This document shows, one piece after another, positions 7,313-52,180 of a stretch of 52,382 nt of DNA. Below the pieces are notes generated by a model. The model worked only from the letters and a program-made list of their open reading frames with translations. It ran no database searches and was not told where the DNA came from. Source of the stretch: Acidimicrobiia bacterium (lineage in GTDB: Bacteria > Actinomycetota > Acidimicrobiia > Acidimicrobiales > Poriferisodalaceae). The stretch covers positions 1 through 52,382 of the forward strand of contig JAJEIW010000002.1 of assembly GCA_022828045.1 (NCBI GenBank), in the 5' to 3' direction. The translations under genes were made by a program, and so were the position numbers. Each line of letters starts with the position of its first letter. Within the stretch, counting starts at the first letter, position 1.

Positions 7313-7417
7313 CAGGTGACCAATTCCCGACCGGCTAGGTAGGATTTAGGGCCCGGGCCTGATCGGTTGATCAGGCCGCCTCGAACGCGACGCCAAGCGA
7401 CGAACAGGGAGGCCCAG

Positions 7418-8581
7418 ATGCCCTCGTTCCGCGAACTGCTGACTGCCACCAAGCAAGAGATCACCGAGATCGACACGGCGACTGCCGCCGAATGGATAGC
7501 CGAGGGCTCGCCCGTCGTGCTTGACGTGCGGGAGCCCGACGAATACGAACAGGGCGCGCTTGCGGACGCAGTCCACATTCCGCGTGGGCATTTGGAGGCC
7601 CAGATCGAGAACCGCGTGCCCGATCACAGCGCGGAGATCATCATCTACTGCGCCGGCGGGGTCCGTTCGGCCTTCGCTGCCAAGACACTCGCCGAGCTCG
7701 GCTATCCCAACTCGGTCTCGATGGACGGGGGTTTCGGTCGCTGGAAGGACGAGGGTCGCCCGTGGTCGACCTCCGCCTCGCTCGGCCCCGAACAGCGCAA
7801 CCGCTACCAGCGCCACCTGCTGCTGCCCGAGGTGGGCGAGACAGGCCAGCTCAAGCTGCTCGAGGCCAAGGCGCTCATGCTGGGCGCCGGCGGACTCGGC
7901 TCGCCCGCGGCGCTGTACCTGGCGGCAGCAGGGGTCGGCACGATCGGCATCATCGACATGGACATCGTCGACGAGTCCAACCTGCAGCGCCAGATTCTCC
8001 ACAACGTCGACCGCGTGGGCGACCGCAAGGTCGACTCGGCCAAGAAGACCCTCACATCGCTGAATCCAGACATCAATGTGGTGACCTACGACACCAGACT
8101 CGGCGCCGACAACGTGCTCGACATCCTGTCCGGCTGGGATGTCGTCGTGGACGGCGCCGACAACTTCCCGAGCCGGTACCTGCTCAACGATGCATCGGTG
8201 AAGCTGGGCATCCCGGTCGTGCACGGCTCGATCTTCCGCTTCGAGGGACAGGTCACTGTCTTTGACCCACTCAACGGTCCGACCTACCGCGACTACCTGC
8301 CCGAGCCCCCACCCGCTGAGCTCGCCCCGTCGTGCGCCGAGGCCGGCGTGCTGGGCGTGCTTCCGGGAATCGTCGGTTCGATCCAGGCGCTCGAGACGAT
8401 CAAGCTGATCCTGGGCATCGGCGATTCGCTCTCGGGTCGGATCATCGCGTTCGACTCGCTCGAGATGACCTTCCGCGAGTTCCGGCTGCGGCCCGACCCC
8501 GCCAATGAGGTGACCTACGACAACCGCGAGCGCATCAGCGTCGTTGAGCTCGACGGTCTCTGCAGCCCCACCCTGAGCTGA
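7418..8581 (+). CDS. Rhodanese--ThiF/MoeB-type adenylyltransferase/sulfurtransferase (MoeZ-like, but with the rhodanese domain at the N-terminus)
   Basis: The N-terminal rhodanese has the active-site loop IIIYCAGGVRSA. The ThiF/MoeB domain follows: RYQRHLLLPEVG, MLGAGGLGSPAALYLAAAGVG, DESNLQRQILH, PSCAEAGVLGVLPG. ATG 7418 is preceded by CAGGGAGG (7405-7412). The track ORF starts at 7367. Confidence 0.9.
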   Translation: MPSFRELLTATKQEITEIDTATAAEWIAEGSPVVLDVREPDEYEQGALADAVHIPRGHLEAQIENRVPDHSAEIIIYCAGGVRSAFAAKTLAELGYPNSVSMDGGFGRWKDEGRPWSTSASLGPEQRNRYQRHLLLPEVGETGQLKLLEAKALMLGAGGLGSPAALYLAAAGVGTIGIIDMDIVDESNLQRQILHNVDRVGDRKVDSAKKTLTSLNPDINVVTYDTRLGADNVLDILSGWDVVVDGADNFPSRYLLNDASVKLGIPVVHGSIFRFEGQVTVFDPLNGPTYRDYLPEPPPAELAPSCAEAGVLGVLPGIVGSIQALETIKLILGIGDSLSGRIIAFDSLEMTFREFRLRPDPANEVTYDNRERISVVELDGLCSPTLS

Positions 8582-17774: not shown

Positions 17775-17884
17775 CAGGCGAGCCTCTCCAGCTGTGGCGC
17801 TGCCGATTCTGTCCTTGCTGAGCTTCCAGTATGGGGCGGGAGGGGTCTGCCAGTACAGCGACTTCATGGGTTACCTTGCGGCAG

Positions 17885-20800
17885 ATGCGCAGTCGCGGCG
17901 CCGCGGGCGAATTCCTCCGGCGCCGGCGCCGGTCATCGCAGCGCCGAAGCCGCCGTGCAGCAGTGCTCGTGCCGGGCGTTGCGCTGCTGGCGGTCGCATC
18001 GATGCTGGCGCCGGTTGCGCGTGCGGGCGCCGCGAACGCGGTGACGCCCGAGCGCCTCTGGGGGCAGGATCGCTACGAGACGGCGGTGCGCATCGCCGAG
18101 GCGTACGTCGCTGAATCAGCCCCGGTCGACACGGTGATCGTCGCTTCGGGGATCGCTTTCGCCGACGCGCTCTCGGCGGCGCCGCTGGCAAGCGTGCTGA
18201 ATGCGCCGGTGCTGCTCACGCCGCCTGACGGCCTGCCAGCGGCGGTGCGAAGCTTCATCGGGCAGAACGGCATCAGCCGCGCGGTCGTAGTGGGCGAAGC
18301 CGACCGTGTCTCCGATGCGGTGGCGGCCGATCTCGCCCGACTCACGGGCGCACAGCCCGAGCGCCTCTCGGGCGCCGACCGCGACGAGACGAATATCCGG
18401 GTAGCTGAACGGGTGGCCAAGGCAGGCATCGGCGACTACTGCGGCGACGGCCTCCGCACGGTGCTGCTGGCGACCCGCGACGTGTTCGCCGATGCGCTGG
18501 CAGTGTCGCCGCTGGCCTACTACGGCCGCCATCCCGTGCTGCTGAGCGACCCGCAGGCGCTGACATCGCGTTCACGGACGTTCCTGACTGATCGAGGTGT
18601 CGAGCAGGTGATCGTCGTCGGCGGCCCTGTCGCGGTGTCGCCGACGGTTCTCGACGCGGTGGCTGGTCTCGGCATCGCCACGCGCCGGTGGTGGGGACAG
18701 GACCGCTACGAGACAGCAGCCACCGTGGCGGCAGAACTGGCCGGCTCCTGCTTCGGTGACGCCGCGGTCGGGCTCGCAAGCGGCACCGCGTTTCCCGATG
18801 CCCTCGTGGGCGGCGCGTTGCTGGGCGCTCGCGCCGTGCCCATGGTGCTGGCCGACACGACGCTGCCCGCCCCGACTCGCCGGGCGCTTGCCCGCACGGC
18901 CGCAGCCGGCGGCGATACGGGCCTCACGGTGCTCGGCGGCCCAGCGGCGGTCCGCGAGACGGTGGTGACGGCAGCGGCGGCAGTGCTGACCCGCCCGCTC
19001 GATGATGCCGGTGCTTCCAGCGCCCCCGAGTGCACTGCGCCGCCTCCCGCTGCCGCTGGCCCGATCTCGGTCGATCCGCCGAGCGACGCCTCCGACGCGG
19101 TAGCCCCGTCGGAGATCGTGGTGGAGGGGCGGGGCCACGGTCACGGCAACGGCATGGGCCAGTGGGGCGCCTTGGGCTACGCCACGCATTTCGGCTGCAC
19201 CGGCGAGCAGATAGCGCTCCGCTACTACGGCAACACCACGCTCACAGATGTCAATGAGCGCGACATCTTCGTCCACCTGACGCGCAATGCCCGCCATGAC
19301 CTGCTGGTCACCTCGAAATCTTCGTTCACGGCCGAAGGCAATTCCTTCGCGGGCGGCGAGATCGCGCGTCTGAGCGTCAGCGGCAACGCCTTCGACGTCC
19401 ATCGCACCTCGGGCTGCGCGGACGACCCGGGAGCGAGCGTGGCGCCGGGCCTGTCCGGACGCAGCGGTCGCAACGGCGACGCGTTCGTCGAAGTGCTGCC
19501 GTCGAGCGACGACTACGCCGCCGATGACCGGTCGAACATGCTGACCATGATCTACTGCGGCGGCACCGGCGACGCCACCGAGATCATGCGCATCACCTAC
19601 CGGGGCGCCCTCGGCATCGTGAAGCAGTCCGGCCGCCCCTACACCTTCAACCGCCTGCCGCTCGAGCAGTACCTGCGCGGCGTGGTGCCCAAGGAGTCGC
19701 CGCCGGACTGGGGCGCCCGCACGGGTCCGGCCGGCACGGGCCTGGCGGCTCTCGAAGCGCAGGCCATCGCGGCGCGCAGCTACGCGCTCTACTGGTCTCA
19801 GTACCAGATGGGCCAGGGGCGCTTCACCGACATCTGCGACTGGCCCGACTGCCAGCTGTACGAAGGCGCGGCGGTCGGGAGCGGCGGTCGGGAGCGTCGC
19901 AACGATCACGGCGCCGGCTTCGAGCACACGACGCTGGCCATCGCCAACACCGAGGGCAGGGCGCTGGTGAATGCCGACGGCAGGTTCGCCTTCGCCGAGT
20001 TCAGCACCAGCAGCGGGGGATGGTCTGCGGGGCCGCCGGCGTCCACGTTCCCAGCTGTGCCTGATCTGGGCGGCGCCATCTACGCCGACAACGGCAACAG
20101 CGGCCACCGATGGACCATCAAGCTGCGACGCTCCGACATCGAGCGAGCCTTCGAGCCGCTGTTCGCGCAGCACGGCAAGACGCTCGGACAGCTCGTGCGG
20201 ATCGACATCACCGGGCGCGACGGCAACGGCGAGTGGGGCGGACGCGTGCGAGCCCTGCGAGTGGTCGGCACCGGCGGCGAGCACACCTTCAGCTTCGACC
20301 GATGGGCACGAGACCCGTTCCGCCGGGCATTCCCTCGCACGGTGCTGTCGGACTGGTACCGCTTCCCGCAGTTCGACAGCGGCTCGAACCCGGTCGAGCC
20401 GGTACAGGGCACCGCCGACGTTCACCTGTGGGTGCTCAAGGCTGACGGAACGGTGCGCGCGCACGGTCTCGCGCGCCACTACGGCGACGGCGCGGACGAG
20501 CCGTCCGATGCGGCTGCCGACGACGGCACCGCGGCGCCCGCATATGTCGATATGGCGGTCACCCGCAGCGGGAAGGGCTACTGGCTGCTCGACGCCTCGG
20601 GAGCGGTGAGGGCACTCGGCGACGCTCGGCACCACGGCGATGCCGTCGGGCAGGTCGACGATGCTGCGCCGCGCACCGCGCCTGTCGGCATCGCGTCCCA
20701 TCCCGAGGGCGGCTACTGGATCGCGCTGGGGAATGGCGAGGTGTTCGAATTCGGAGCGGCTGCCGATGTGGGAGCCGAGGAGCGCTCCGATGCTGATGCG

Positions 20801-21187
20801 CTCATCGTGGACGTCGAATCGACTCCGTCCGGCGATGGGCTCTGGCTGCTCGCCACGAACGGCGCGGTGCTGGCCTACGGCGGCGCCGAACAGCTGGGAT
20901 CGGCGGACACCGCTGCCGCGGTGGGCATCGCGGCAGCAGCCGACGGCGACGGCTACTGGGTGACCGACGCGGGCACGGCCGTGCACGTATTCGGCAGTGC
21001 AGCTTCGCTGGGATCGCGTTCGGGCCGGGCCAACCGTCTGGCAGCAGTCGACATGGTGGCCACCGACACAGGCGACGGCTACTGGCTGATCTGGAGCGAC
21101 GGCACCAGCTTCAACTACGGCATCGCGCCCGACTACCCGACGAGCCGGGCTGGGCCGGGCGTGGTCGCTGCTGCGTCGGTGCGCTGA
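17885..21187 (+). CDS. Large secreted cell-wall protein: three CWB2-type cell-wall-binding repeats, a SpoIID/LytB domain and six C-terminal propeller-like repeats
   Basis: Arg-rich signal (RRRRRSSQRRSRRAAVLVPGVALLAVASMLAPVARAGA). Three repeats of the GQDRYETA...FADAL...P(V/M)LL type. SpoIID signature GRGHGHGNGMGQWGALGYA. C-terminal GYWLLDASGAVRALG-type repeats. The start is either ATG 17885 or ATG 17831. Confidence 0.8.
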   Translation: MRSRGAAGEFLRRRRRSSQRRSRRAAVLVPGVALLAVASMLAPVARAGAANAVTPERLWGQDRYETAVRIAEAYVAESAPVDTVIVASGIAFADALSAAPLASVLNAPVLLTPPDGLPAAVRSFIGQNGISRAVVVGEADRVSDAVAADLARLTGAQPERLSGADRDETNIRVAERVAKAGIGDYCGDGLRTVLLATRDVFADALAVSPLAYYGRHPVLLSDPQALTSRSRTFLTDRGVEQVIVVGGPVAVSPTVLDAVAGLGIATRRWWGQDRYETAATVAAELAGSCFGDAAVGLASGTAFPDALVGGALLGARAVPMVLADTTLPAPTRRALARTAAAGGDTGLTVLGGPAAVRETVVTAAAAVLTRPLDDAGASSAPECTAPPPAAAGPISVDPPSDASDAVAPSEIVVEGRGHGHGNGMGQWGALGYATHFGCTGEQIALRYYGNTTLTDVNERDIFVHLTRNARHDLLVTSKSSFTAEGNSFAGGEIARLSVSGNAFDVHRTSGCADDPGASVAPGLSGRSGRNGDAFVEVLPSSDDYAADDRSNMLTMIYCGGTGDATEIMRITYRGALGIVKQSGRPYTFNRLPLEQYLRGVVPKESPPDWGARTGPAGTGLAALEAQAIAARSYALYWSQYQMGQGRFTDICDWPDCQLYEGAAVGSGGRERRNDHGAGFEHTTLAIANTEGRALVNADGRFAFAEFSTSSGGWSAGPPASTFPAVPDLGGAIYADNGNSGHRWTIKLRRSDIERAFEPLFAQHGKTLGQLVRIDITGRDGNGEWGGRVRALRVVGTGGEHTFSFDRWARDPFRRAFPRTVLSDWYRFPQFDSGSNPVEPVQGTADVHLWVLKADGTVRAHGLARHYGDGADEPSDAAADDGTAAPAYVDMAVTRSGKGYWLLDASGAVRALGDARHHGDAVGQVDDAAPRTAPVGIASHPEGGYWIALGNGEVFEFGAAADVGAEERSDADALIVDVESTPSGDGLWLLATNGAVLAYGGAEQLGSADTAAAVGIAAAADGDGYWVTDAGTAVHVFGSAASLGSRSGRANRLAAVDMVATDTGDGYWLIWSDGTSFNYGIAPDYPTSRAGPGVVAAASVR
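20420..21184 (+). repeat. Six tandem ~40-aa protein repeats (blade-like) at the C-terminus of the 17885..21187 protein
   Basis: LWVLKADGTVRAHG, GYWLLDASGAVRALG, GYWIALGNGEVFEFG, GLWLLATNGAVLAYG, GYWVTDAGTAVHVFG, GYWLIWSDGTSFNYG. The common pattern is G-[YL]-W-x4-5-G-x-[VF]-x3-G. Confidence 0.55.
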
Positions 21188-21213
21188 CACCGCTGCGGCA
21201 GACTCGAAGTCGC

Positions 21214-24200
21214 ATGGACACGAACGCCGAAGCGTCCGAGCCAGAAGATCCGGCCTGCGCCGCGAATCCGCCGGCTTCGGAGGTGCCGCCAGCGCCCGCG
21301 GCACTCGAACCAGCCGTTTTGGCGCCCTCGCCGGCGGTCGCAGCCATCGTCACGGCCTCGTCTCGATGGTCCGACACCGAGGCCACCTTGGGTGCACTGG
21401 CTGCCCAGGATTACCCCCGCTTGGCCGTCCTGGTGCTGTGCGACGCCGAGGGCCCTCAGGGCCATCGTGTCCGCGAACTGCTTCCCACCGTCGCGGTTGC
21501 GAACCAGATGTCATCCCGCCCCGAACAGCGCCGGGGCTCGCACCGGCACCGCACCGGATCGGTCAACAACCGGGGCGCGTCGCTGGTGCGGGGGGCCGAC
21601 TACCTGCTGTTCCTGACCGATGGCGTCGTGCTGACGCCTGATGCAGTCAGCGTCCTCATCGACGACGCCGAGAACGCCCCGGGCAGGGTCGTCGGTGTCG
21701 CTGGACCGAAGCTGCTCGACGCCGACGACGGCATGACGCTGCGCGATCTGGGTGGTACGGCGGATCGCCTCGGCGTGAGGATCCCAGCCGCCAGCCAAGG
21801 CGAAGTGGACCAGGCCCAGCACGACGAGGCACGGGACCTGTTCGTGGCGCCGACGCAGGCGATGCTGGTCCGGGCGGATGTGTTCGCGATCGTCGGCGGG
21901 TTCGATCCTCACCTCGACGGCGACGGCGCGGCCGTCGATTTGTGCTGGCGGATCCAGCTCGCTGGGTCGCGCGTGCGCATCGTGCCGGCCGCAACCGGGC
22001 TGGTGCAGTCCACGCCGCCCGCAGCACCGTTCGGCCCCTCGGCTCGCCAGCATGAACATCGGGCCCGGCTGCGCACGATGCTGAAGTGCTACGGCTGGGT
22101 GCATCTGCTGCCCTCAGTGCTGCTCGCAGCCGTGCTGGCGCTGGGCGAGGTGCTCTTCGCGGCCCTGCGCGGGCGGTTCGCGCAGGCATCAGACGTAGCG
22201 CTGGCTTGGGCGTGGAATGCCCGGCGCCTTCCGGGCACGTTTGCCTTGCGTGGTGCTGCGAAGCGCTACCGACGAGTGCGTGATGTCGACTTGCGCCGAT
22301 TGCAGCAGGGCGGCTCGATTCGGGTCGCCGACTGGTTCCGCTACCGCCTCAGCCCCGAAGGCGGTCTGGCGGCGCGCACCACCATCGACGAGAGCATCCT
22401 CGGCACCTGGCGGCGCAATGCGCACCGGACGGTGTGGGTGGTGTGGGTGCTCGTGGCAGGCGGGATCGCCTTCGGTTCCCGCCATCTGCTGACTGGCGGC
22501 ATCTCCGCATATGGACAGTTCGCGCACTTCGCCGATGCTCCGACGATGCTCAGCGCCTACCTCGACGGCTGGCGTGTCGATGCGGCGGGAGACGCCGGGA
22601 TCGGTCATCCCGCGATGGGTCTGCTGGGCATCGGCGGGATCATCGTGCTCGGCGCCGTCGGGCTGCTGCGTCACATCGCTGTATGGGGGCTGCTGCTGGC
22701 AGGCCTCGTCGGCATGTGGAAGCTCTGCGCACCATCGAACAGTCGCAATGGCCGGCTGGTCGCCCTCGCGCTCTATGCCGCATGTCCGCTGCCCTACAAC
22801 GCGGTGGCCAATGGGCGCTGGGACGTGCTGCTCGCGTACGGCGTCGCGCCCGCAATAGTGCTGATGGTCAGCCGGCTGATGGGTGCGGTGGCGGTCGGAC
22901 CCTCCGGTGACGGCAGCCGGCGTTCGACAGCGGCCCGTGTCGCGTCGCTGGGACTGTTGTTTGCCGTCGCCGCGGCATTCGAGCCGTTCATCGTGGTGCT
23001 CGGGCTGGGCGCCGCGGCGGTGCTGGCCGTCACCGAGTCCACTTGGCGGGCGACAAGCCGGTCGTCGCTGGCGACACCGTGGCTCGGGCTGCTGCTGGTT
23101 TTCGCGGCAGCGGCGCTCGCCGTGGCGGCACACCTTCCTTGGCTGATCGAATTCGGTTCACTGCAGGCGTTCTTGGATGTTTCCGGGGGCAGGTCGACAG
23201 CCTCGCCACCGGCGTCGCTCGCAGAGCTCCTGCGATTCCAGACGGGACCGCTGGGCGATCTGCCGCTGGGCTGGGGCATGGCGGGTGCCGCAGCGGTGCC
23301 GCTGCTCGTCGGGCGCTCGAGCCGGCTGTGGTGGGCGGCTCGGGGTTGGATGGTGGGCCTCGCAGGATTCGCAGGGGCGTGGGCAGTCGTCACCGGCTGG
23401 GCCGACGGCCTGCTGGCCGAGATTCCGATCGGAGACTCGCTGGCTGAGGTCTCGCTGGTGCTCGGCGCTGTAGGGCTGTGCTGGGCGGCCGCAGCAGGCC
23501 CGCCGGTGCTGGCGGCGTCCGGCGGCGACACGTCGCCGCGTGTGCGCAGCGCGATGGTGCTCATCAGCGGCCTCGCCGTGGGCGCGATGGTGCTGCCCAC
23601 GGCGTGGGCGGCGGTCGACGGCGACTGGTCGGCGCCGAGCTTCGATCACCGTGTGCCGTTGGGACTGATCGATGATCGAGATGTCGGGCCCGACTACCGC
23701 GTGCTCTGGATCGGCGACTCCGACGTCTTGCCGCTGCGCGGATCGGAGCTGGGCATCGACGGCCTCGCCGCAGGCACGTCGGTTCGCGGCTTTCCTGATG
23801 TCCGCCATCAATGGGCGTCGCCCCCCACGCCGGGAAATGAGCGCCTGCTGGACGCTGTGAGAGTGGGGTTGGCCGGCGACACCCTGCGCATGGGGCGGCT
23901 GCTCGGATCGTTCGGCATCCGTTATGTCGTCCTGGTCGAGCGTTCGGGTCCGTCGTACTCAGCAGGTTGGGAACGGCCGGTCGACCCGGCGATCGCGGAG
24001 GCGTTGGCCTCGCAGATCGACTTGCGCCCTCTCGCGGTCGATCCGTCGGTGCAAGTGTTCCGCAACGAGGCGTGGTGGTCGTCGCGGGCGCAGTTCTCCC
24101 AGCCGATCCCTCCCGGCTTCGCAGTCGACCAGACCGATCTGGTGGTGAGCGATCTGAGCGACGGCATCGGCGTGCTCACCGACTACCGGTCCCCAACGGT

Positions 24201-24498
24201 GCAGCTCGGGCATGTGGGTACCGGCCCATTGCTCGTCGCTGAGGGGTTCGATCCGGGCTGGAGACTCCAGGTGGACAGCACGGAGGTCTCACCGACGCCC
24301 GCGCTGGGCTGGGCGATGCGATTCGATCCGCCCCATGCCGGCCAAGCTGAGCTGAGCTACGAGCGCTCTGCTGCGGTCACCGACCGGCTGTGGGCTCAAG
24401 CGCTGATCTGGCTGTCGATCGGGTGGGTGGCCATCGGCCAGCCGACGCCACTCGCCGACCGCGTGACGGCGGCATTCGGAAGGTTGCGGCGGCGATGA
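21214..24498 (+). CDS. Fusion protein: N-terminal family-2 glycosyltransferase, polytopic membrane domain and large C-terminal (probably extracytoplasmic) domain
   Basis: GT2-like N-terminal third (AAIVTASSRWSDTEATLGALAAQDYPRLAVLVLCD..., FLTDGVVL, CWRIQLAGSRV). About 12 hydrophobic spans lie between roughly aa 300 and 790. A hydrophilic tail of about 300 aa follows. Confidence 0.8.
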   Translation: MDTNAEASEPEDPACAANPPASEVPPAPAALEPAVLAPSPAVAAIVTASSRWSDTEATLGALAAQDYPRLAVLVLCDAEGPQGHRVRELLPTVAVANQMSSRPEQRRGSHRHRTGSVNNRGASLVRGADYLLFLTDGVVLTPDAVSVLIDDAENAPGRVVGVAGPKLLDADDGMTLRDLGGTADRLGVRIPAASQGEVDQAQHDEARDLFVAPTQAMLVRADVFAIVGGFDPHLDGDGAAVDLCWRIQLAGSRVRIVPAATGLVQSTPPAAPFGPSARQHEHRARLRTMLKCYGWVHLLPSVLLAAVLALGEVLFAALRGRFAQASDVALAWAWNARRLPGTFALRGAAKRYRRVRDVDLRRLQQGGSIRVADWFRYRLSPEGGLAARTTIDESILGTWRRNAHRTVWVVWVLVAGGIAFGSRHLLTGGISAYGQFAHFADAPTMLSAYLDGWRVDAAGDAGIGHPAMGLLGIGGIIVLGAVGLLRHIAVWGLLLAGLVGMWKLCAPSNSRNGRLVALALYAACPLPYNAVANGRWDVLLAYGVAPAIVLMVSRLMGAVAVGPSGDGSRRSTAARVASLGLLFAVAAAFEPFIVVLGLGAAAVLAVTESTWRATSRSSLATPWLGLLLVFAAAALAVAAHLPWLIEFGSLQAFLDVSGGRSTASPPASLAELLRFQTGPLGDLPLGWGMAGAAAVPLLVGRSSRLWWAARGWMVGLAGFAGAWAVVTGWADGLLAEIPIGDSLAEVSLVLGAVGLCWAAAAGPPVLAASGGDTSPRVRSAMVLISGLAVGAMVLPTAWAAVDGDWSAPSFDHRVPLGLIDDRDVGPDYRVLWIGDSDVLPLRGSELGIDGLAAGTSVRGFPDVRHQWASPPTPGNERLLDAVRVGLAGDTLRMGRLLGSFGIRYVVLVERSGPSYSAGWERPVDPAIAEALASQIDLRPLAVDPSVQVFRNEAWWSSRAQFSQPIPPGFAVDQTDLVVSDLSDGIGVLTDYRSPTVQLGHVGTGPLLVAEGFDPGWRLQVDSTEVSPTPALGWAMRFDPPHAGQAELSYERSAAVTDRLWAQALIWLSIGWVAIGQPTPLADRVTAAFGRLRRR

Positions 24499-28725: not shown

Positions 28726-28801
28726 GAGTTCATGCTATGGCGGACAGGTCGGAACCCATAGCCGCGCAATTCCGGCTTGGGCACAGCACTAACCTGCGCT
28801 G

Positions 28802-31800
28802 GTGGCCGCACCGACCATGCGCCCCCCGCGCAAGGGGGCGGTGCTGGCGGCGTGGGTCGAAGCGGCAGTGGCGGCGGCGAGCTGCGTGGCCGTCTTTCTG
28901 TGGCTCGATCCGGCCGGCATCTTCTCGGCCGCGACGCCCACCGGCGGGGACATGGGCGCCCACGTGTGGGGGCCGTCGTTCCTCCGGAACGAGCTTCTGC
29001 CCTCGGGCTCGCTGCGCGGCTGGACGACTGAGTGGTACGCGGGCATGCCTGCGATGCAGTTCTACATGGTGGTGCCCTACCTGCTGATCGTGGCCGCCGA
29101 CCTGGTGCTGCTCTCGGGTGTCGCATTCAAGCTGGTGGCCGTCAGCGGGGTGGTCTCGATGCCCGCAGCCGCGTGGCTGATGGGCCGGCTGGCGGGCTGG
29201 GCGCGGCCGCTGCGGATGCTGTTGCCGGTTGCGGGGCTGCTGTTCGTCTTCGACGTGAACTTCACGATCTACGGCGGGAACGCAGCATCGACCTTGGCGG
29301 GGGAGTTCGCCTTCTCGATCGCGCTGTCGGCGACGCTGGTGTACCTCGGCATGCTGTGGCGCTCGCTCGAGCGGGGCACCGGCCGTGCCCGGACCAGCTT
29401 CGTCTTGGCGTTCGTCGCGCTCTGCCACCCGATACCGCTCGCGTTTGCCGTCGCCGCCAGTGTGCTGATGGTGGCGGTGCGCGGTCTGCACGGCCTGCCA
29501 GGTCGCATCGGCCGGGTGCCGGCGATGGGCGTGTCGATCGCGGCGATCATGCTGTGGGCCGCCGTGTGGAACATCACCGAGGCCCCGCTGTGGCGTCTTG
29601 CGGTTCCTGCAGCGGTGATCGCCGCGCTCGCGCTGGCGGAGTGGCGCAGGTCGTGGCACGCGCTCGTCATCGGGGTGATCGGCGGCGCGGTCTCGGCGTT
29701 CTGGACGGTGCCGTTCGCAGCCCGCCGGGCATTCATGAACGACATGGGCTGGGAGCGGCTCACCTCGGTGCGGGAGCACCTGTTCTTCACCGACGAGATC
29801 GGCGGTGAGGGGACCTTTCACAGCATCACCTGGCTGCTGGTGCTCGCTGGCGTGGGTGCAGCGGTGGGTCTCGTCCGCTGGTACCGCCCCGCGATGACGT
29901 GGACGGCGATCGCATTCGCCATGGCCATGGGATTCGTCCACTGGCCCCAGCACCGCCTGTGGAACGCGCGCATCCTGCCGTTCTGGTACCTGGCTCTGTA
30001 CTTGCTGGCGGCGATGGGGCTGTGGCTCATCATCGAGGGTCTGACACGCCGGGAAGCGTCTGCGACCGAGGGTTCACCGCGATCGGCACTGCCGGTCGTG
30101 CAGTGGCCGCGGGTGACGCTCCCGGTCGTGGCGTTCATCGCAGCTGTGGGCCTGCTGCTGTTGCGCTTCGGCGATGCCCCCGGCGGCAGCCTCGACGCCA
30201 GCGGAGCATTTCGCTGGGGTCCTCTCACGGTGTCATCGGAGGACCGAAACTTCGTGTCGGGATGGGCGCGCTGGAATTTCCGCGGCTACGAGGGACGCCC
30301 GGCCTATCCCGAGTACCGCAAGTTCGTCTCGACGATGGACGAGGTGGGTGAGCAGCACGGATGCGGACGATTGCTGTGGGAATACGACCGCGATGTCGTG
30401 GGCGCATACGGCACTCCGATGGCGCCGATGCTGCTGCCGCAATGGACTGACGGCTGCATCGCCTCGATGGAAGGTCTCTATTTCGAGTCGTCGCCGACCG
30501 TGCCGTTCCACTTCCTCATGCAGTCGGAACTGTCGGCTGCGCCTTCGCGCCCCATGCGAGGTCTGCCTTACAGCGCACTGGACTTCGGGCTCGGCGTCTC
30601 GCACCTGCAGATGTCGGGGGTGCGTTACTACGCAGCCTTCAGCGCCGAGGCCACGGCCGGGGCCCACGGCTCGGCCGACCTGGCCCACATCGCCTCATCG
30701 GGACCGTGGTCGATCTATCTCGTCGACGGCAGCGACGTGGTGTCGCCGCTGCGATTCGAGCCCGCCGTCGCCGAGGGCGTGTCCCACGCTGGACGAGCGT
30801 GGACCGATCCTGCGGCGATCTGGTTCATCGACCCGGCGGCGTGGGACGTGCCCATCGCCGCCGACGGCCCGCCGCACTGGTCTCGGGTGACGCTGCTGCC
30901 GCCGCCCGATCCTGACGGTGCTCCGCCCGCTTCGCTGACGAGATTCAGTGCAGCACCTCGGCGCGCCCTGCCACCGGTCGAGATCAGCCGCCCGGCGATG
31001 GAACAGGACCGGCTGTCATTCTCTGTGGATCGGCCTGGAGTGCCGGTGCTCGTCAAGATGTCCTACTTCCCGAACTGGTCGGTCGACGGCGCCGACGGTC
31101 CCTACCGCGTCACGCCGAATTGGATGGTGGTGATCCCCACCGGCCCCCATGTCGAGCTCACCTACGGCGCCACCGCCGTCGAGTATCTCGCGTGGCTGAC
31201 GACGCTCATCGGGCTCGCGGCGCTGGCTCTCGTTGCCGTTCGGCCACCGGCACGATTCGAGAGCCGCTCGGCCGCCGAGGCTCGCCGCGCAGCGCAGCTC
31301 GAGGCTGCGACAACGCAGGTCGATACAGCGGCAGCCCAGTTCGACTCCGGCGGCGGACACGACACAGCAGACATCGGGCGGGTACAGCCGACGGTGTCGG
31401 TCGTGCTGCCGGCCTATCAGGCTGCACACCTGGTGGGTCCGGCAGTGGCGCAGGTCAGCGCCGCTCTGCGCGGCAACCAGGCCATCGGCGGCGACCTCGA
31501 GATTGTCGTGGTCGACGACGGGTCCACTGACGGGACTGCGGAGGCGGCTCGGCGTGCCGGCGCCGATGTCGTCGTTGCCGAGGCTGCGAATCGCGGCAAA
31601 GGCGCTGCGGTGCGGGCGGGCATGCTCGCGGCCAGCGGGCGGCTACGCCTGTTCACCGATGTCGATCTGGCCTACCCACCCGGCCAGCTCAACTCGCTCA
31701 TCGAAGCGTTGGAAGCCGGTGCCGATGTCGCACTCGGCAACCGGCGTCATGACGAAGCCCGCACGATCACTCCTGCGCCAGCAGCGAGGGCGTTCGCAAG

Positions 31801-32143
31801 TCGCCTCTTCAACGCCTTCACGCGGGTCGTGCTGCTCCGCCGCTATCGCGACACCCAGTGCGGCTTCAAAGGCTTCACCGAAGAGGCAGCGCGGACGATC
31901 TTCGGTCGCTGCGTCATCGACGGCTTCGCCTTCGATGTCGAGGTGCTCTACCTCGTCGAACATCTCGGTCTGACAGCGACCGAGGTTCCCGTGGCGGTTG
32001 ATCACACTGCGGACACCACGGTTCGCCTGGCAGCGCAGTCGTTGAAGGTGGTTGCCGACATCTGGCGCATACGCCACCGCGCCGGGGCCGACGCGTACGA
32101 CGCTGACGCTGCGCCGTCGACTGTTGACGCAGCCCAGGCGTGA
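28802..32143 (+). CDS. Fusion protein: N-terminal polytopic membrane (GT-C-like?) domain, extracytoplasmic domain, one TM helix and C-terminal polyprenyl-phosphate glycosyltransferase-type GT2
   Basis: The N-terminus has GGDMGAHVWGP and then more than 10 hydrophobic spans to about aa 460. A soluble region of about 330 aa follows, then TM YLAWLTTLIGLAALALVAV. The GT2 part follows: VSVVLPAYQAA..., IVVVDDGSTDGT, FTDVDLAYPP, RDTQCGFKGF (Alg5/Dpm1/GtrB-like). Confidence 0.8.
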   Translation: MAAPTMRPPRKGAVLAAWVEAAVAAASCVAVFLWLDPAGIFSAATPTGGDMGAHVWGPSFLRNELLPSGSLRGWTTEWYAGMPAMQFYMVVPYLLIVAADLVLLSGVAFKLVAVSGVVSMPAAAWLMGRLAGWARPLRMLLPVAGLLFVFDVNFTIYGGNAASTLAGEFAFSIALSATLVYLGMLWRSLERGTGRARTSFVLAFVALCHPIPLAFAVAASVLMVAVRGLHGLPGRIGRVPAMGVSIAAIMLWAAVWNITEAPLWRLAVPAAVIAALALAEWRRSWHALVIGVIGGAVSAFWTVPFAARRAFMNDMGWERLTSVREHLFFTDEIGGEGTFHSITWLLVLAGVGAAVGLVRWYRPAMTWTAIAFAMAMGFVHWPQHRLWNARILPFWYLALYLLAAMGLWLIIEGLTRREASATEGSPRSALPVVQWPRVTLPVVAFIAAVGLLLLRFGDAPGGSLDASGAFRWGPLTVSSEDRNFVSGWARWNFRGYEGRPAYPEYRKFVSTMDEVGEQHGCGRLLWEYDRDVVGAYGTPMAPMLLPQWTDGCIASMEGLYFESSPTVPFHFLMQSELSAAPSRPMRGLPYSALDFGLGVSHLQMSGVRYYAAFSAEATAGAHGSADLAHIASSGPWSIYLVDGSDVVSPLRFEPAVAEGVSHAGRAWTDPAAIWFIDPAAWDVPIAADGPPHWSRVTLLPPPDPDGAPPASLTRFSAAPRRALPPVEISRPAMEQDRLSFSVDRPGVPVLVKMSYFPNWSVDGADGPYRVTPNWMVVIPTGPHVELTYGATAVEYLAWLTTLIGLAALALVAVRPPARFESRSAAEARRAAQLEAATTQVDTAAAQFDSGGGHDTADIGRVQPTVSVVLPAYQAAHLVGPAVAQVSAALRGNQAIGGDLEIVVVDDGSTDGTAEAARRAGADVVVAEAANRGKGAAVRAGMLAASGRLRLFTDVDLAYPPGQLNSLIEALEAGADVALGNRRHDEARTITPAPAARAFASRLFNAFTRVVLLRRYRDTQCGFKGFTEEAARTIFGRCVIDGFAFDVEVLYLVEHLGLTATEVPVAVDHTADTTVRLAAQSLKVVADIWRIRHRAGADAYDADAAPSTVDAAQA

Positions 32144-39629: not shown

Positions 39630-42452
<2,823 letters not shown>

Positions 42453-42453
42453 G

Positions 42454-43593
42454 GTGAGCCGATCCCTGAGCGATCTCACCGACGCGCTGGCGGATCTGGA
42501 TCGGCGCGTGGGCGAGGCGCATCACTACCTGGGTATCGACGAGGCGCGCACCGCTGCGAACAGGCTGGAAGCTGAGGCATCGGAGCCATCGCTGTGGGAT
42601 GACCCCGACCGGGCCCGGGCGGTCACCACCCGGCTGTCGCGTGTGCGCGACGACATCGATCGCTGGCACCGGGCCCGCGTCGAGGTGGATGATGCCACCG
42701 CACTCGTGGAGCTGGCGGCAGAGGAGGACGATGCCGAGCTGCTGCCCGAGATAGGCGAGGCCGTCGAAGCAGCCGAACGCAGGCTCGCCGAGATCGAGCT
42801 GATGGCGCTGTTCAGCGGTGAGCACGACCACAGCGACGCGGTGTGCGAGATCAACTCGGGTGCCGGGGGCACTGACGCATGCGACTGGGCCGAGATGCTG
42901 CTGCGGATGTACCAGCGCTGGGCCGAGCGCAATGACTTCACCGTGGAGCTGACCGAGGCCACCGACGGCGGAGAGGCGGGCATCAGCTCGGCCACGTTTC
43001 TCGTCAAGGGGCGGCACGCGTTCGGCTTCCTTGCAGCGGAGCGGGGTGTGCATCGGCTGGTGCGCATCTCGCCGTTCGACGCGCAGTCTCGGCGCCACAC
43101 GGCGTTCGCCTCGCTGAAGGTGGTGCCGTTCTTCGACGAGGTGTCAGACGAAGTGCCCATCGACGAGGGCGACCTGCGCATCGACACCTACCGTTCCTCA
43201 GGCGCCGGCGGCCAGCACGTGAACGTCACCGACTCTGCGGTGCGCATCACGCACCTGCCCACGGGCATCGTGGTGGCCTGCCAGAACGAGCGCAGCCAGC
43301 ATCAGAACAAGGACCGGGCCATGCAGATGCTGGCGGCCAAGCTGGCCGACTTGCAGCGGACCGAGCGCGAGGCTGAGGTTGCCGCGTTGGCGGGCGAGCA
43401 GCGCGACGTGGCGTGGGGAAGCCAGATCCGCTCCTATGTGCTGCACCCCTACCAGCAGGTCAAGGATCTGCGCACTGGCATGGAGATCGGCAACGTGGAC
43501 GCCGTGCTCGATGGCGACCTCGACGGCCTGATGGAGGCGTACCTGCGCTGGCAGCGCTCCCAGCAAGTCCCCGACAGCACGGCTCCACGCTGA
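42454..43593 (+). CDS. prfB: Peptide chain release factor 2 (uninterrupted, no programmed frameshift)
   Basis: RISPFD (SPF) and SGAGGQHVN (GGQ). GTG 42454 lies 1 nt after the secA stop. The track ORF 41950..43593 extension overlaps secA. Confidence 0.9.
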
Positions 43594-50998: not shown

Positions 50999-51092
50999 GG
51001 AGACACTCAGCCCCCGGCTCGATGCCGCCTCTGAGCCTGCGTGCCGGAGACACTCGGCTCAGGGATTGGTGTTGCTTCTGAGCCGGTGCAGA
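50999..51092. repeat. Tandem imperfect 47-nt direct repeat in the thpR / tlpA-like divergent promoter region
   Basis: Unit 1 spans 50999-51045 and unit 2 spans 51046-51092. Both begin GGAGACACTC and both carry CTGAGCC at offset 32. My hand alignment gives 31/47 identical positions. Confidence 0.5.
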
Positions 51093-51115
51093 GGAGGGTT
51101 ACGCTCACCAGCGTG

Positions 51116-52180
51116 ATGCTGGTACTGCGCCGAACGGCCTTGGTGGCTGTCTCGTGTGTCGTGGGAACTGGCCTGCTGGCCGGTTGCAGCAGCGCCAGTG
51201 ACGAGACACCCCAGACGGTGGCCGCCAGCACGGCCGCACCAGCGGTCGCGACGACCGAGCCGCCAGCGAGCCCGACCACGGCGCCCGTGTCTGCTGAGTC
51301 AGCAGATTCCGAAGGCGCTGCAGAGGACGCCGGAACCGCCGAGGAGGCTGTCGGCGACGGCGCGGATCAGGCCGCTGCCTCTCAGCCCGACGACGCAAGC
51401 GACGACCAGGCCCAGACTGACGGCGACGAAAGCGACGCTGCGGATCCGGCGGAACCGGCCGACAGCGAATCCAGCGAGACCGCAGAACAGCCGGCCGACG
51501 ACGAAGGTGAGGACGAGACCGACGAGAGTGCCGATGTCGACGAGGGGGTGATTGAGGGCGTCACTGATGATCCAGCCGACGAGGCTGACGATGAGTCCGA
51601 CGAGGGTGAGGATGAGACCGACGGCAGCGAGGTGTCTGAAGAGGAGGCCGACGCCGAGGATGCCGAGGCAGACGATTCTGCGAGCACCGAGGACGAGGGC
51701 GATGCCGAGGAGGCCGAGCAAGATCCAGAGGGGGATGACGCCGAGGAGGCCGTCACCGATCCCGAGCCCATCGAGGATCGGCCCAAGGTGCTGGCGCTGG
51801 CCGTCGCACAAGTCGACGGCACGACGCTCGATGTCGCTGCGTTTGCAGGCCGCGACGTGCTGGTGTGGTTCTGGGCGCCGTGGTGACCCAACTGCCGGCG
51901 GGAGGCGCCTGCGGTCGCAGCGCTGAAGACACGACATGGCGATGACTTGGCCCTTGTCAGCGTCGGGGGGCATGACAGCACATCGGCCATTTCCCGCTTC
52001 GTGCGCTCCTATGGACTCGGCCACATGCCGAACTTGCCCGATCCGGACAACGAGCTCGCCATTGCACTCGGCGTCAGCTATCACCCCCGCTGGCTGCTGA
52101 TCCGTGCCGACGGCACTGAGCAGGCAGGCGGCGGCGCGATCCCCGACGCCGTCGTGACCGACGCGCTCACCCCCGGCTGA
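51116..52180 (+). CDS. TlpA/ResA-like thiol-disulfide oxidoreductase lipoprotein with in-frame TGA (51884-51886) at the first Cys of CxxC: candidate selenoprotein or recent pseudogene
   Basis: Track ORFs 51041..51886 and 51947..52180 are in the same frame. Lipobox LLAGC. An acidic linker of about 165 aa. Then VLVWFWAPW-TGA-PNCRREAP, and a well-preserved redoxin C-terminus (...LGVSYHPRWLLIRADG...). Confidence 0.6.
51891..51915 (+). promoter_or_regulatory. SECIS-like stem-loop beginning 4 nt after the in-frame TGA
   Basis: Lower stem 51891-51895 pairs with 51911-51915 (A-U, C-G, U-G, G-C, C-G). A 1x1 mismatch follows (51896/51910). Upper stem GGCG (51897-51900) pairs with CGCC (51906-51909). 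The apical loop is GGAGG (51901-51905). The upper stem starts 10 nt after the UGA. Confidence 0.35.

Follow-up and report, generated by a model that had tools for sequence, protein, structure and literature searches.

A conserved UGA as the probable selenocysteine codon of an exported DsbE/DsbF-like oxidoreductase in sponge-associated Acidimicrobiia

The stretch of DNA analysed here (the window) comprises positions 1 to 52,382 of contig JAJEIW010000002.1, from an Acidimicrobiia bacterium of the family Poriferisodalaceae (assembly GCA_022828045.1). Near its 3′ end, on the forward strand, two open reading frames (ORFs; 51041..51886 and 51947..52180) lie in one common frame. They are parted only by the TGA at 51884-51886, a point made in the initial annotation of this DNA and borne out by the ORF coordinates. 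This TGA is flanked by TGG (W) and by CCC-AAC-TGC (P-N-C), and is the sole internal stop between the ATG at 51116 and the terminal TGA at 52178-52180; reading through it gives a product of the form ...DVLVWFWAPW-[TGA]-PNCRREAPAVAALK...SYHPRWLLIRADG...TPG. We propose that TGA 51884-51886 is a selenocysteine (Sec, U) codon and that the locus encodes a real UxxC selenoprotein, a reading that the comparative sequence evidence makes very probable. To follow the codon through related genomes, we fetched 6 loci plus 33 loci from species-representative genomes; these 39 and the window make 40 sequences, from ~30 species-level genomes, of which 37 are distinct over codons -35 to +50.

The complete selenoprotein gene (51116..52180, forward strand, as are all features of it given here) would consist of 354 codons plus a stop, with Sec as codon 257, and is split by gene finders. 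A likely Shine-Dalgarno sequence, AGGAGG (51092..51097), stands upstream of GTG 51113 or ATG 51116 and is tentatively assigned to this start; its bases are kept in orthologues, where they are visible as the pseudo-translation 'RRV' just 5′ of the signal peptide. The translation begins with a predicted lipoprotein signal peptide, MLVLRRTALVAVSCVVGTGLLAG and then C (51116..51187), which ends in the lipobox LLAGC (51173-51187), Cys24 (51185-51187) being the residue expected to be lipidated. Most orthologues, as well as the short paralogues described below, keep this lipobox as L-(L/V)-(A/S)-(G/S)-C followed by SS or GS. Next comes an acidic low-complexity linker of ~195 residues, rich in D, E, A, T and P (51188..51772), for which a Pfam search gave no family match. 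The region upstream of the TGA varies from 234 to 441 codons across orthologues, while the domain itself is of fixed size. This TlpA/ResA/DsbE/DsbF-like thioredoxin-fold domain (residues 220-354, 51773..52177) was delimited from Pfam, NCBIfam and solved structures. It holds the UGA read as U257, first position of the U-P-N-C redox motif (51884..51886), and the resolving cysteine C260 of the UxxC motif (51893..51895), whose TGC codon is invariant in 37/37 distinct sequences and whose column is also invariant in the alignment with Cys-form homologues. Further downstream lies a conserved proline codon, P324 in SYHPRW (52085..52087), invariant in an 18-sequence alignment. P324 aligns with the Pro of DsbF 'TQQPAY' and with the cis-Pro loop of thioredoxin-fold enzymes, and presumably shares the cis conformation of its family. 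The true terminator, TGA 52178..52180, has no conserved hairpin behind it; TGA serves in this place in 39/40 sequences and TAG in the remaining one.

For domain profile searches, U was replaced by C in the query protein. Matches above the Pfam cut-offs were obtained for Redoxin (45.4 bits vs. a cut-off of 26.6; 9e-12), AhpC-TSA (39.1 vs. 26), Thioredoxin_8 (32.7 vs. 27) and Thioredoxin (31.9 vs. 23.5), and they fall in the C-terminal 135 residues. The NCBIfam equivalogs all scored below their cut-offs (TlpA NF047696, 46.3 vs. 230 bits; ResA NF002854, 46.2 vs. 170 bits; DsbE/CcmG TIGR00385, 43.3 vs. 123 bits). By these scores the protein is placed in the TlpA/ResA/DsbE superfamily only, with no named equivalog. 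Both markers of the thioredoxin fold are present, the WAPW-U-PNC active site and the Pro loop (P324). The best matches among solved structures were M. tuberculosis DsbF (3IOS, 1.3e-16) and MPT53/DsbE (1LU4, 2.4e-15), followed by ResA, with ~105-115 residues aligned, and these matches assign the predicted fold to the DsbE/DsbF (TlpA)-like type. An extracytoplasmic location is predicted from the conserved lipoprotein signal peptide and lipobox, replaced in one paralogue by a CW_binding_2 domain. In all likelihood, then, positions 51116-52180 form one gene, whose product is an actinobacterial thiol:disulfide oxidoreductase of DsbE/DsbF (TlpA-like) type, exported and lipid-anchored, with selenocysteine as its nucleophile (W-A-P-W-U-P-N-C).

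In alignments with DsbF, MPT53 and eight Cys-form homologues, the UGA codon takes the place of the first Cys of their CxxC motif. As this residue is the nucleophile of DsbF, the stop falls exactly on the nucleophilic cysteine. Frame, Pfam matches and the DsbF alignment agree in this respect with the initial annotation, which had placed the TGA at the first Cys of the CxxC motif in a TlpA/ResA-like lipoprotein. The sequence context is near-identical in M. tuberculosis DsbF (Rv1677), with WFWAPW-C-PTC there and WFWAPW-U-PNC here. Both DsbF and DsbE/MPT53 (Rv2878c) resemble the present protein in coming from Actinomycetota, in being exported and in having the conserved Pro loop; unlike it, they have Cys at the UGA site, no selenocysteine insertion sequence (SECIS) and no long acidic linker. 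DsbE and DsbF of M. tuberculosis are reported oxidases; TlpA, ResA and CcmG are reductases fed by CcdA. No ccdA or resBC neighbour was found beside the Sec-form genes in the inspected loci. The nearest Cys-form homologue (Sporichthyaceae, locus L040, 3001-4529) is followed directly on its 3′ side by a CcdA-like DsbD_TM gene and preceded on its 5′ side by a phage-type integrase; in contrast to it, the Sec forms have no such adjacent redox partner.

The relatives belong to Candidatus Poriferisodalis and to unclassified Acidimicrobiia, Acidimicrobiales or 'Microthrixaceae' genomes, all of the class Acidimicrobiia; no literature was found under the name 'Poriferisodalis'. The window shows ~83-88% nucleotide identity to their loci and has the same gene order (LigT-like, glyoxalase, acyl-CoA dehydrogenase, the selenoprotein gene and a convergent trpC), and therefore represents a further species of the same genus-level group. 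The active-site codon is TGA in 40/40 sequences, across three paralogue groups and down to ~55% amino-acid identity. This answers the question raised by the initial annotation, whether relatives have Cys or TGA in this column: all 39 related loci have TGA. Because it is conserved in every relative, a stop at the active-site position is far beyond chance. In a homologue search, the 17 closest proteins (59-86% identity) were fragments of 74-82 residues starting ~20 codons past the stop, and no full-length Cys-containing homologue appeared above ~40% identity.

Selection on the protein is seen on both sides of the codon. Pairwise ratios of nonsynonymous to synonymous change (dN/dS) are 0.1-0.5 both upstream and downstream of the TGA, at a proportion of synonymous differences (pS) of 0.4-0.7, near saturation. 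Low dN/dS with high pS implies that the downstream part has long been kept as protein in the same frame. Indeed, frame and spacing across the stop are retained in 40/40 sequences. When the window and all loci were scanned for further ORFs interrupted by TGA and bearing a coding signature before and after it, only this family was returned. Together, the TGA in 40 sequences and the purifying selection on both halves strongly support the UxxC selenoprotein reading first put forward in the initial annotation.

The family comprises up to three paralogues per genome. To the first group belongs the lipoprotein found in conserved synteny, whose acidic linker is long. Members of the second (loci L035-L039) are short lipoproteins in which ~120 residues precede the UGA and the motif reads U-P-A-C; in four genomes their gene lies at a distance of 65-70 kb from the main one. 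The third has an N-terminal region with a CW_binding_2 cell-wall-binding domain, 431 residues in length (L002 8642-10231, and L032); L002 and L032 lie on the same 4.49 Mb chromosome as the loci L001/L021.

Behind the UGA, unguided RNAalifold returned a consensus hairpin at columns 21-41 of the alignment, corresponding to window 51904-51924 (forward strand; GGCGC-C-UGC-GGUC-GCA-GCGCU), a conserved structured element 17-37 nt downstream of the codon. It consists of 5 base pairs, a bulged C (51909), 3 further base pairs and the apical loop GGUC (51913-51916). In 30 distinct sequences 240/240 cells are paired, the only departures being G-U in place of A-U at the bottom pair (14 sequences) and in place of G-C at the next one (2 sequences). 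Columns 22 to 39 after the TGA are invariant at every nucleotide. Codons +7 to +12 (Ala-Pro-Ala-Val-Ala-Ala, GCG CCT GCG GTC GCA GCG) are all four-fold degenerate and show zero synonymous change in 37 sequences, whereas the other conserved four-fold columns of the region vary in 19/19 cases (6/6 vs. 0/19 invariant; Fisher's exact test, ~6e-6, own calculation). Mean pS is 0.10 within this stretch vs. 0.47 in the flanks. Two of its codons, CCT and GCA, are fixed A/T-ending codons in a 68% GC genome, and they form the U-A pair of the upper stem.

The Cys-form protein P0017 (Sporichthyaceae) serves as a natural control: it has the same peptide (C-T-E-C-RREAPAVAA), encoded as GAG GCC CCG GCT GTG GCC GCC. 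P0017 forms no hairpin, and a forced fold has an energy of +2.2 kcal/mol. The 18-nt core is exact in 39/39 TGA loci, including all paralogue groups, and absent from 2/2 Cys-form loci. The invariance of the nucleotides is thus more than conservation of the amino acids can account for. We take the hairpin at 51904-51924 to be the recoding signal of the gene, a putative SECIS.

Published criteria for bacterial SECIS elements are a loop of 3-9 nt with a G in the first two loop positions, an upper stem of 4-16 bp, a UGA-to-loop distance of 16-37 nt and a minimum free energy (MFE) of -7.5 kcal/mol or lower (PMC13188914). The conserved hairpin agrees with all of these (GGUC loop, 8 bp plus one bulge, 26 nt to the loop, -10.5 kcal/mol). 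In our implementation, the same scan is passed by 242/300 random TGAs (~80%) in this 68% GC window; the model being non-discriminating in GC-rich DNA, the case for a SECIS rests on conservation. Comparison with the SECIS of E. coli fdhF, in which the UGA is followed after 11 nt by the minihelix GGU-U-GCA-GGUC-UGC-ACC (sequence verified in 5419/5426 E. coli genomes), shows a similar layout. Common to both are a 3-bp upper stem, a GGUC loop, a single 5′ bulged pyrimidine, a further helix and a position inside the coding sequence downstream of the UGA. Unlike in fdhF, the bulge is C and not U, the lower helix has 5 G-C-rich pairs and the stem sequences are unrelated.

The initial annotation had proposed a different SECIS, a hairpin at 51891-51915 with a GGAGG loop and an upper stem 10 nt past the UGA, and had itself cautioned that it could be fortuitous. 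This hairpin is the single-sequence MFE fold of the window (-14.4 kcal/mol), and 176/200 shuffles fold at least as well (z = +1.04), which is in keeping with that caution. In relatives, 80.7% of cells pair and one pair is broken in 24/30 sequences. We rejected it as the SECIS, since it is no better than shuffles and its pairing is not kept in relatives. The hairpins at 51891-51915 and 51904-51924 overlap and are mutually exclusive in the window sequence. Taken alone, a hairpin at this place is no better than chance, because shuffles and random TGAs do as well.

The window also carries a gene for release factor 2 (RF2), prfB (TIGR00020, 488 bits vs. a cut-off of 370), and 26/33 of its predicted genes end in TGA. 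UGA is therefore otherwise a normal stop here, and we rejected a genome-wide reassignment of UGA, given the presence of RF2 and the use of TGA as main terminator. The prfB gene (41923-43593, forward strand) comes after secA. A programmed +1 frameshift is known from the E. coli RF2 gene; the window prfB seems to be without one, because positions 2-353 of TIGR00020 are matched in a single frame.

Several observations weigh against selenocysteine at this codon. Neither the window nor ~450 kb of related loci yielded selA, selB, selD or tRNA-Sec: ARAGORN gave no tRNA-Sec in the window and 39 loci, and Pfam no SelA, SelB or SelD in 30 window ORFs. A homologue search with E. coli SelA gave only Enterobacterales among the matches listed. 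In a representative SelA search, the picks of high-GC composition were Gemmatimonadota and Nitrospinota, with no Actinomycetota. As for the RNA signal, the overlapping non-conserved hairpin is stronger in the window than the conserved one (-14.4 vs. -10.5 kcal/mol). The equivalent of the fdhF minihelix begins 19 nt past the UGA vs. 11 nt in fdhF, and its loop lies at 26 vs. 18 nt. No Rfam model detects the hairpin at 51904-51924: there was no match in the window at the gathering threshold, and a permissive search of 51700-52100 gave only an SAH match on the opposite strand, taken as chance. Finally, the hairpin shows no compensatory double changes, being otherwise invariant, so that its support consists of conservation and one-sided changes only.

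The literature on sponge and marine Acidimicrobiia gives indirect support for Sec machinery in this lineage. According to Slaby et al. 2017, SelA and SelB COGs (clusters of orthologous groups) co-occur in most Aplysina sponge symbiont bins; their Table S4 lists SelA (2), SelB (1) and SelD (1) for the Acidimicrobiia bin76, and SelD only for bin134. A 2026 preprint reports selA, selB, selC and selD in all 84 complete genomes of Actinomarina (Actinomarinales, class Acidimicrobiia); its authors, too, note that Rfam offers no usable bacterial SECIS model.

The lack of Sec machinery in the window and fetched loci also speaks for a Sec-independent recoding, in which the hairpin would stimulate read-through by a near-cognate or suppressor tRNA (Trp, Cys, Arg or Gly) in the absence of SelB and tRNA-Sec. 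UGA-C is a leaky termination context, and the base after the UGA is C in 33/37 sequences and U in 4/37. Structured elements downstream of stops can, moreover, promote read-through. Yet the UGA coincides precisely with the catalytic Cys, as is characteristic of Sec/Cys pairs. If Cys were to be inserted, a plain TGC would serve, as it does in the Cys-form homologues, and Trp or Arg would destroy the redox motif. The fit of the hairpin to the bacterial SECIS model and to the layout of the fdhF SelB-binding minihelix, including the GGUC loop, also argues for Sec, as do the SelA, SelB and SelD of related sponge and marine Acidimicrobiia. We consider Sec-independent recoding unlikely. Its fullest form, in which these sponge symbionts lack canonical SelA, SelB and tRNA-Sec and a frozen 21-nt hairpin drives Sec-independent UGA recoding in three exported redox paralogues, strikes us as equally improbable.

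Less likely still is genuine termination at 51886, which would leave a 256-residue acidic lipoprotein ending in WAPW, possibly accompanied by a 77-residue peptide started from TTG 51947. All public annotations treat the locus in this way, and RF2 is present. However, neither half makes a complete thioredoxin fold, and the DsbF alignment spans the stop. Protein-level conservation extends over the 20 codons from the TGA to the supposed restart, among them that of the invariant resolving Cys. The restart codon itself (codon +21) is TTG in 18, CTG in 11 and CTC in 8 of 37 sequences, and is therefore not a conserved start. The dN/dS values well under 1 in one continuous frame across the stop, and the constancy of frame and distance in 40/40 sequences, likewise speak against termination. 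A recent TGC/TGT to TGA nonsense mutation creating a pseudogene, or a sequencing or assembly error, would be a fair first assumption for a lone sequence in which one substitution separates TGA from a Cys codon and had been the alternative named in the initial annotation, but it can be dismissed as next to impossible, the TGA being fixed across three paralogue groups in 40/40 independently assembled sequences from ~30 species-level genomes, with flanking synonymous sites near saturation and no Cys form above ~40% identity.

For decoding as selenocysteine, we infer a mechanism mediated by SelB. A ribosome arriving at UGA 51884-51886 would have the hairpin at 51904-51924 just beyond its mRNA channel. 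With the UGA in the A site, the 5′ arm of the non-conserved hairpin (51891-51915) would be inside the ribosome, while the conserved one, starting 17 nt past the UGA codon, would be free to fold. SelB-GTP-Sec-tRNA(Sec) would then bind the conserved hairpin, and Sec be inserted rather than RF2 terminate translation. After export, the protein would receive a lipid at Cys24, and the ~195-residue acidic linker would keep it at a distance from the membrane. At the cell surface, Sec257 could attack substrate disulfides or sulfenates, and Cys260 would resolve the mixed selenenylsulfide. Catalysis could run in either direction, as oxidase or as reductase.

Some further features of the window and the related loci may be recorded here. 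ARAGORN called a 91-nt tRNA-Ser(cga) at window 31270-31360 (forward strand), inside ORF 28793-32143 and just upstream of a glycosyltransferase-2 domain; Rfam gave no tRNA at 31270-31360, either at the gathering threshold or at E<=10, and the call is probably a false positive. Two very large ORFs lie on the forward strand, one (17822-21187) with three CW_binding_2 repeats and a SpoIID domain, the other (20797-24498) with no Pfam match. The CW_binding_2 domain of the former is the same that anchors the Sec-containing paralogue L002/L032. A MoeB-like protein with rhodanese and ThiF domains is encoded, uninterrupted, at 7343-8581 (forward strand); MoeB is one of the families for which Sec-containing forms are listed from marine metagenomes. 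A giant gene (L005 15413-20237, reverse strand), coding for at least 6791 residues with dozens of fibronectin type III repeats, lies downstream of the orthologue at a distance of ~5 kb in one genome of 3.9 Mb.

Predictions of UxxC selenoproteins with a TlpA-like or Prx-like thioredoxin fold go back to 2004-2005, and UxxC selenoproteins of TlpA-like and thiol-disulfide-isomerase-like type count as an established family of predicted proteins. The present proteins resemble known UxxC TlpA-like selenoproteins in their TlpA-like domain (PF13905, PF00578, PF08534), in having Sec first in UxxC and in their marine microbial origin. Three features of the present clade have no counterpart in the papers on known members (MGB1650493.1, MAK15852.1, WP_010940744.1): it comes from sponge-associated Acidimicrobiia only, consists of lipoproteins or cell-wall-anchored proteins and has up to three paralogues per genome. 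With NF041054, the NCBI ResA-like WAxxUGC selenoprotein, they share a ResA/TlpA-like fold and Sec in a WAxx-U context; the protein is not a member of that family (30.6 bits vs. a cut-off of 300), with U-P-N-C here and U-G-C there. Judged from these sequences, we are dealing with a Sec form of the actinobacterial DsbE/DsbF clade, so far confined to sponge-associated Acidimicrobiia, and with a kind of selenoprotein that is already known.

In public annotations the gene is split in every relative, and the 74-85 amino-acid fragments go by the names 'hypothetical', 'peroxiredoxin family' or 'TlpA family'. RefSeq examples are WP_419946603.1 ('hypothetical protein'), WP_420446743.1 ('peroxiredoxin family protein') and WP_419946228.1 ('TlpA family protein disulfide reductase'). 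No public record that we inspected for this gene bears a selenoprotein label. The split annotation affects at least ~30 public genomes, including closed RefSeq chromosomes; among the closed chromosomes with the gene are NZ_OZ242344.1 and NZ_OZ244781.1 (both Ca. Poriferisodalis), NZ_OZ241968.1 and OZ220724.1.

Concepts of Sec decoding are unchanged by these findings, which would not surprise a specialist. The family does offer a clean natural SECIS example, with 18 nt identical across paralogues at ~55% protein identity and a Cys-form control with the same peptide, which would be useful to train bacterial selenoprotein predictors. In the lineage of sponge-associated Acidimicrobiia, as many as three exported selenoproteins per genome would be regained once the annotation is corrected. 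The finding is consistent with the enrichment of SelA and SelB that has been reported in sponge symbionts (PMC5649159). It would extend selenoprotein use in Actinomycetota to a cell-surface DsbE/DsbF-type oxidoreductase, and, conceivably, Actinomycetota have in these proteins their first family of extracytoplasmic selenoproteins with a lipid or cell-wall anchor, tripled as an adaptation to the sponge host.

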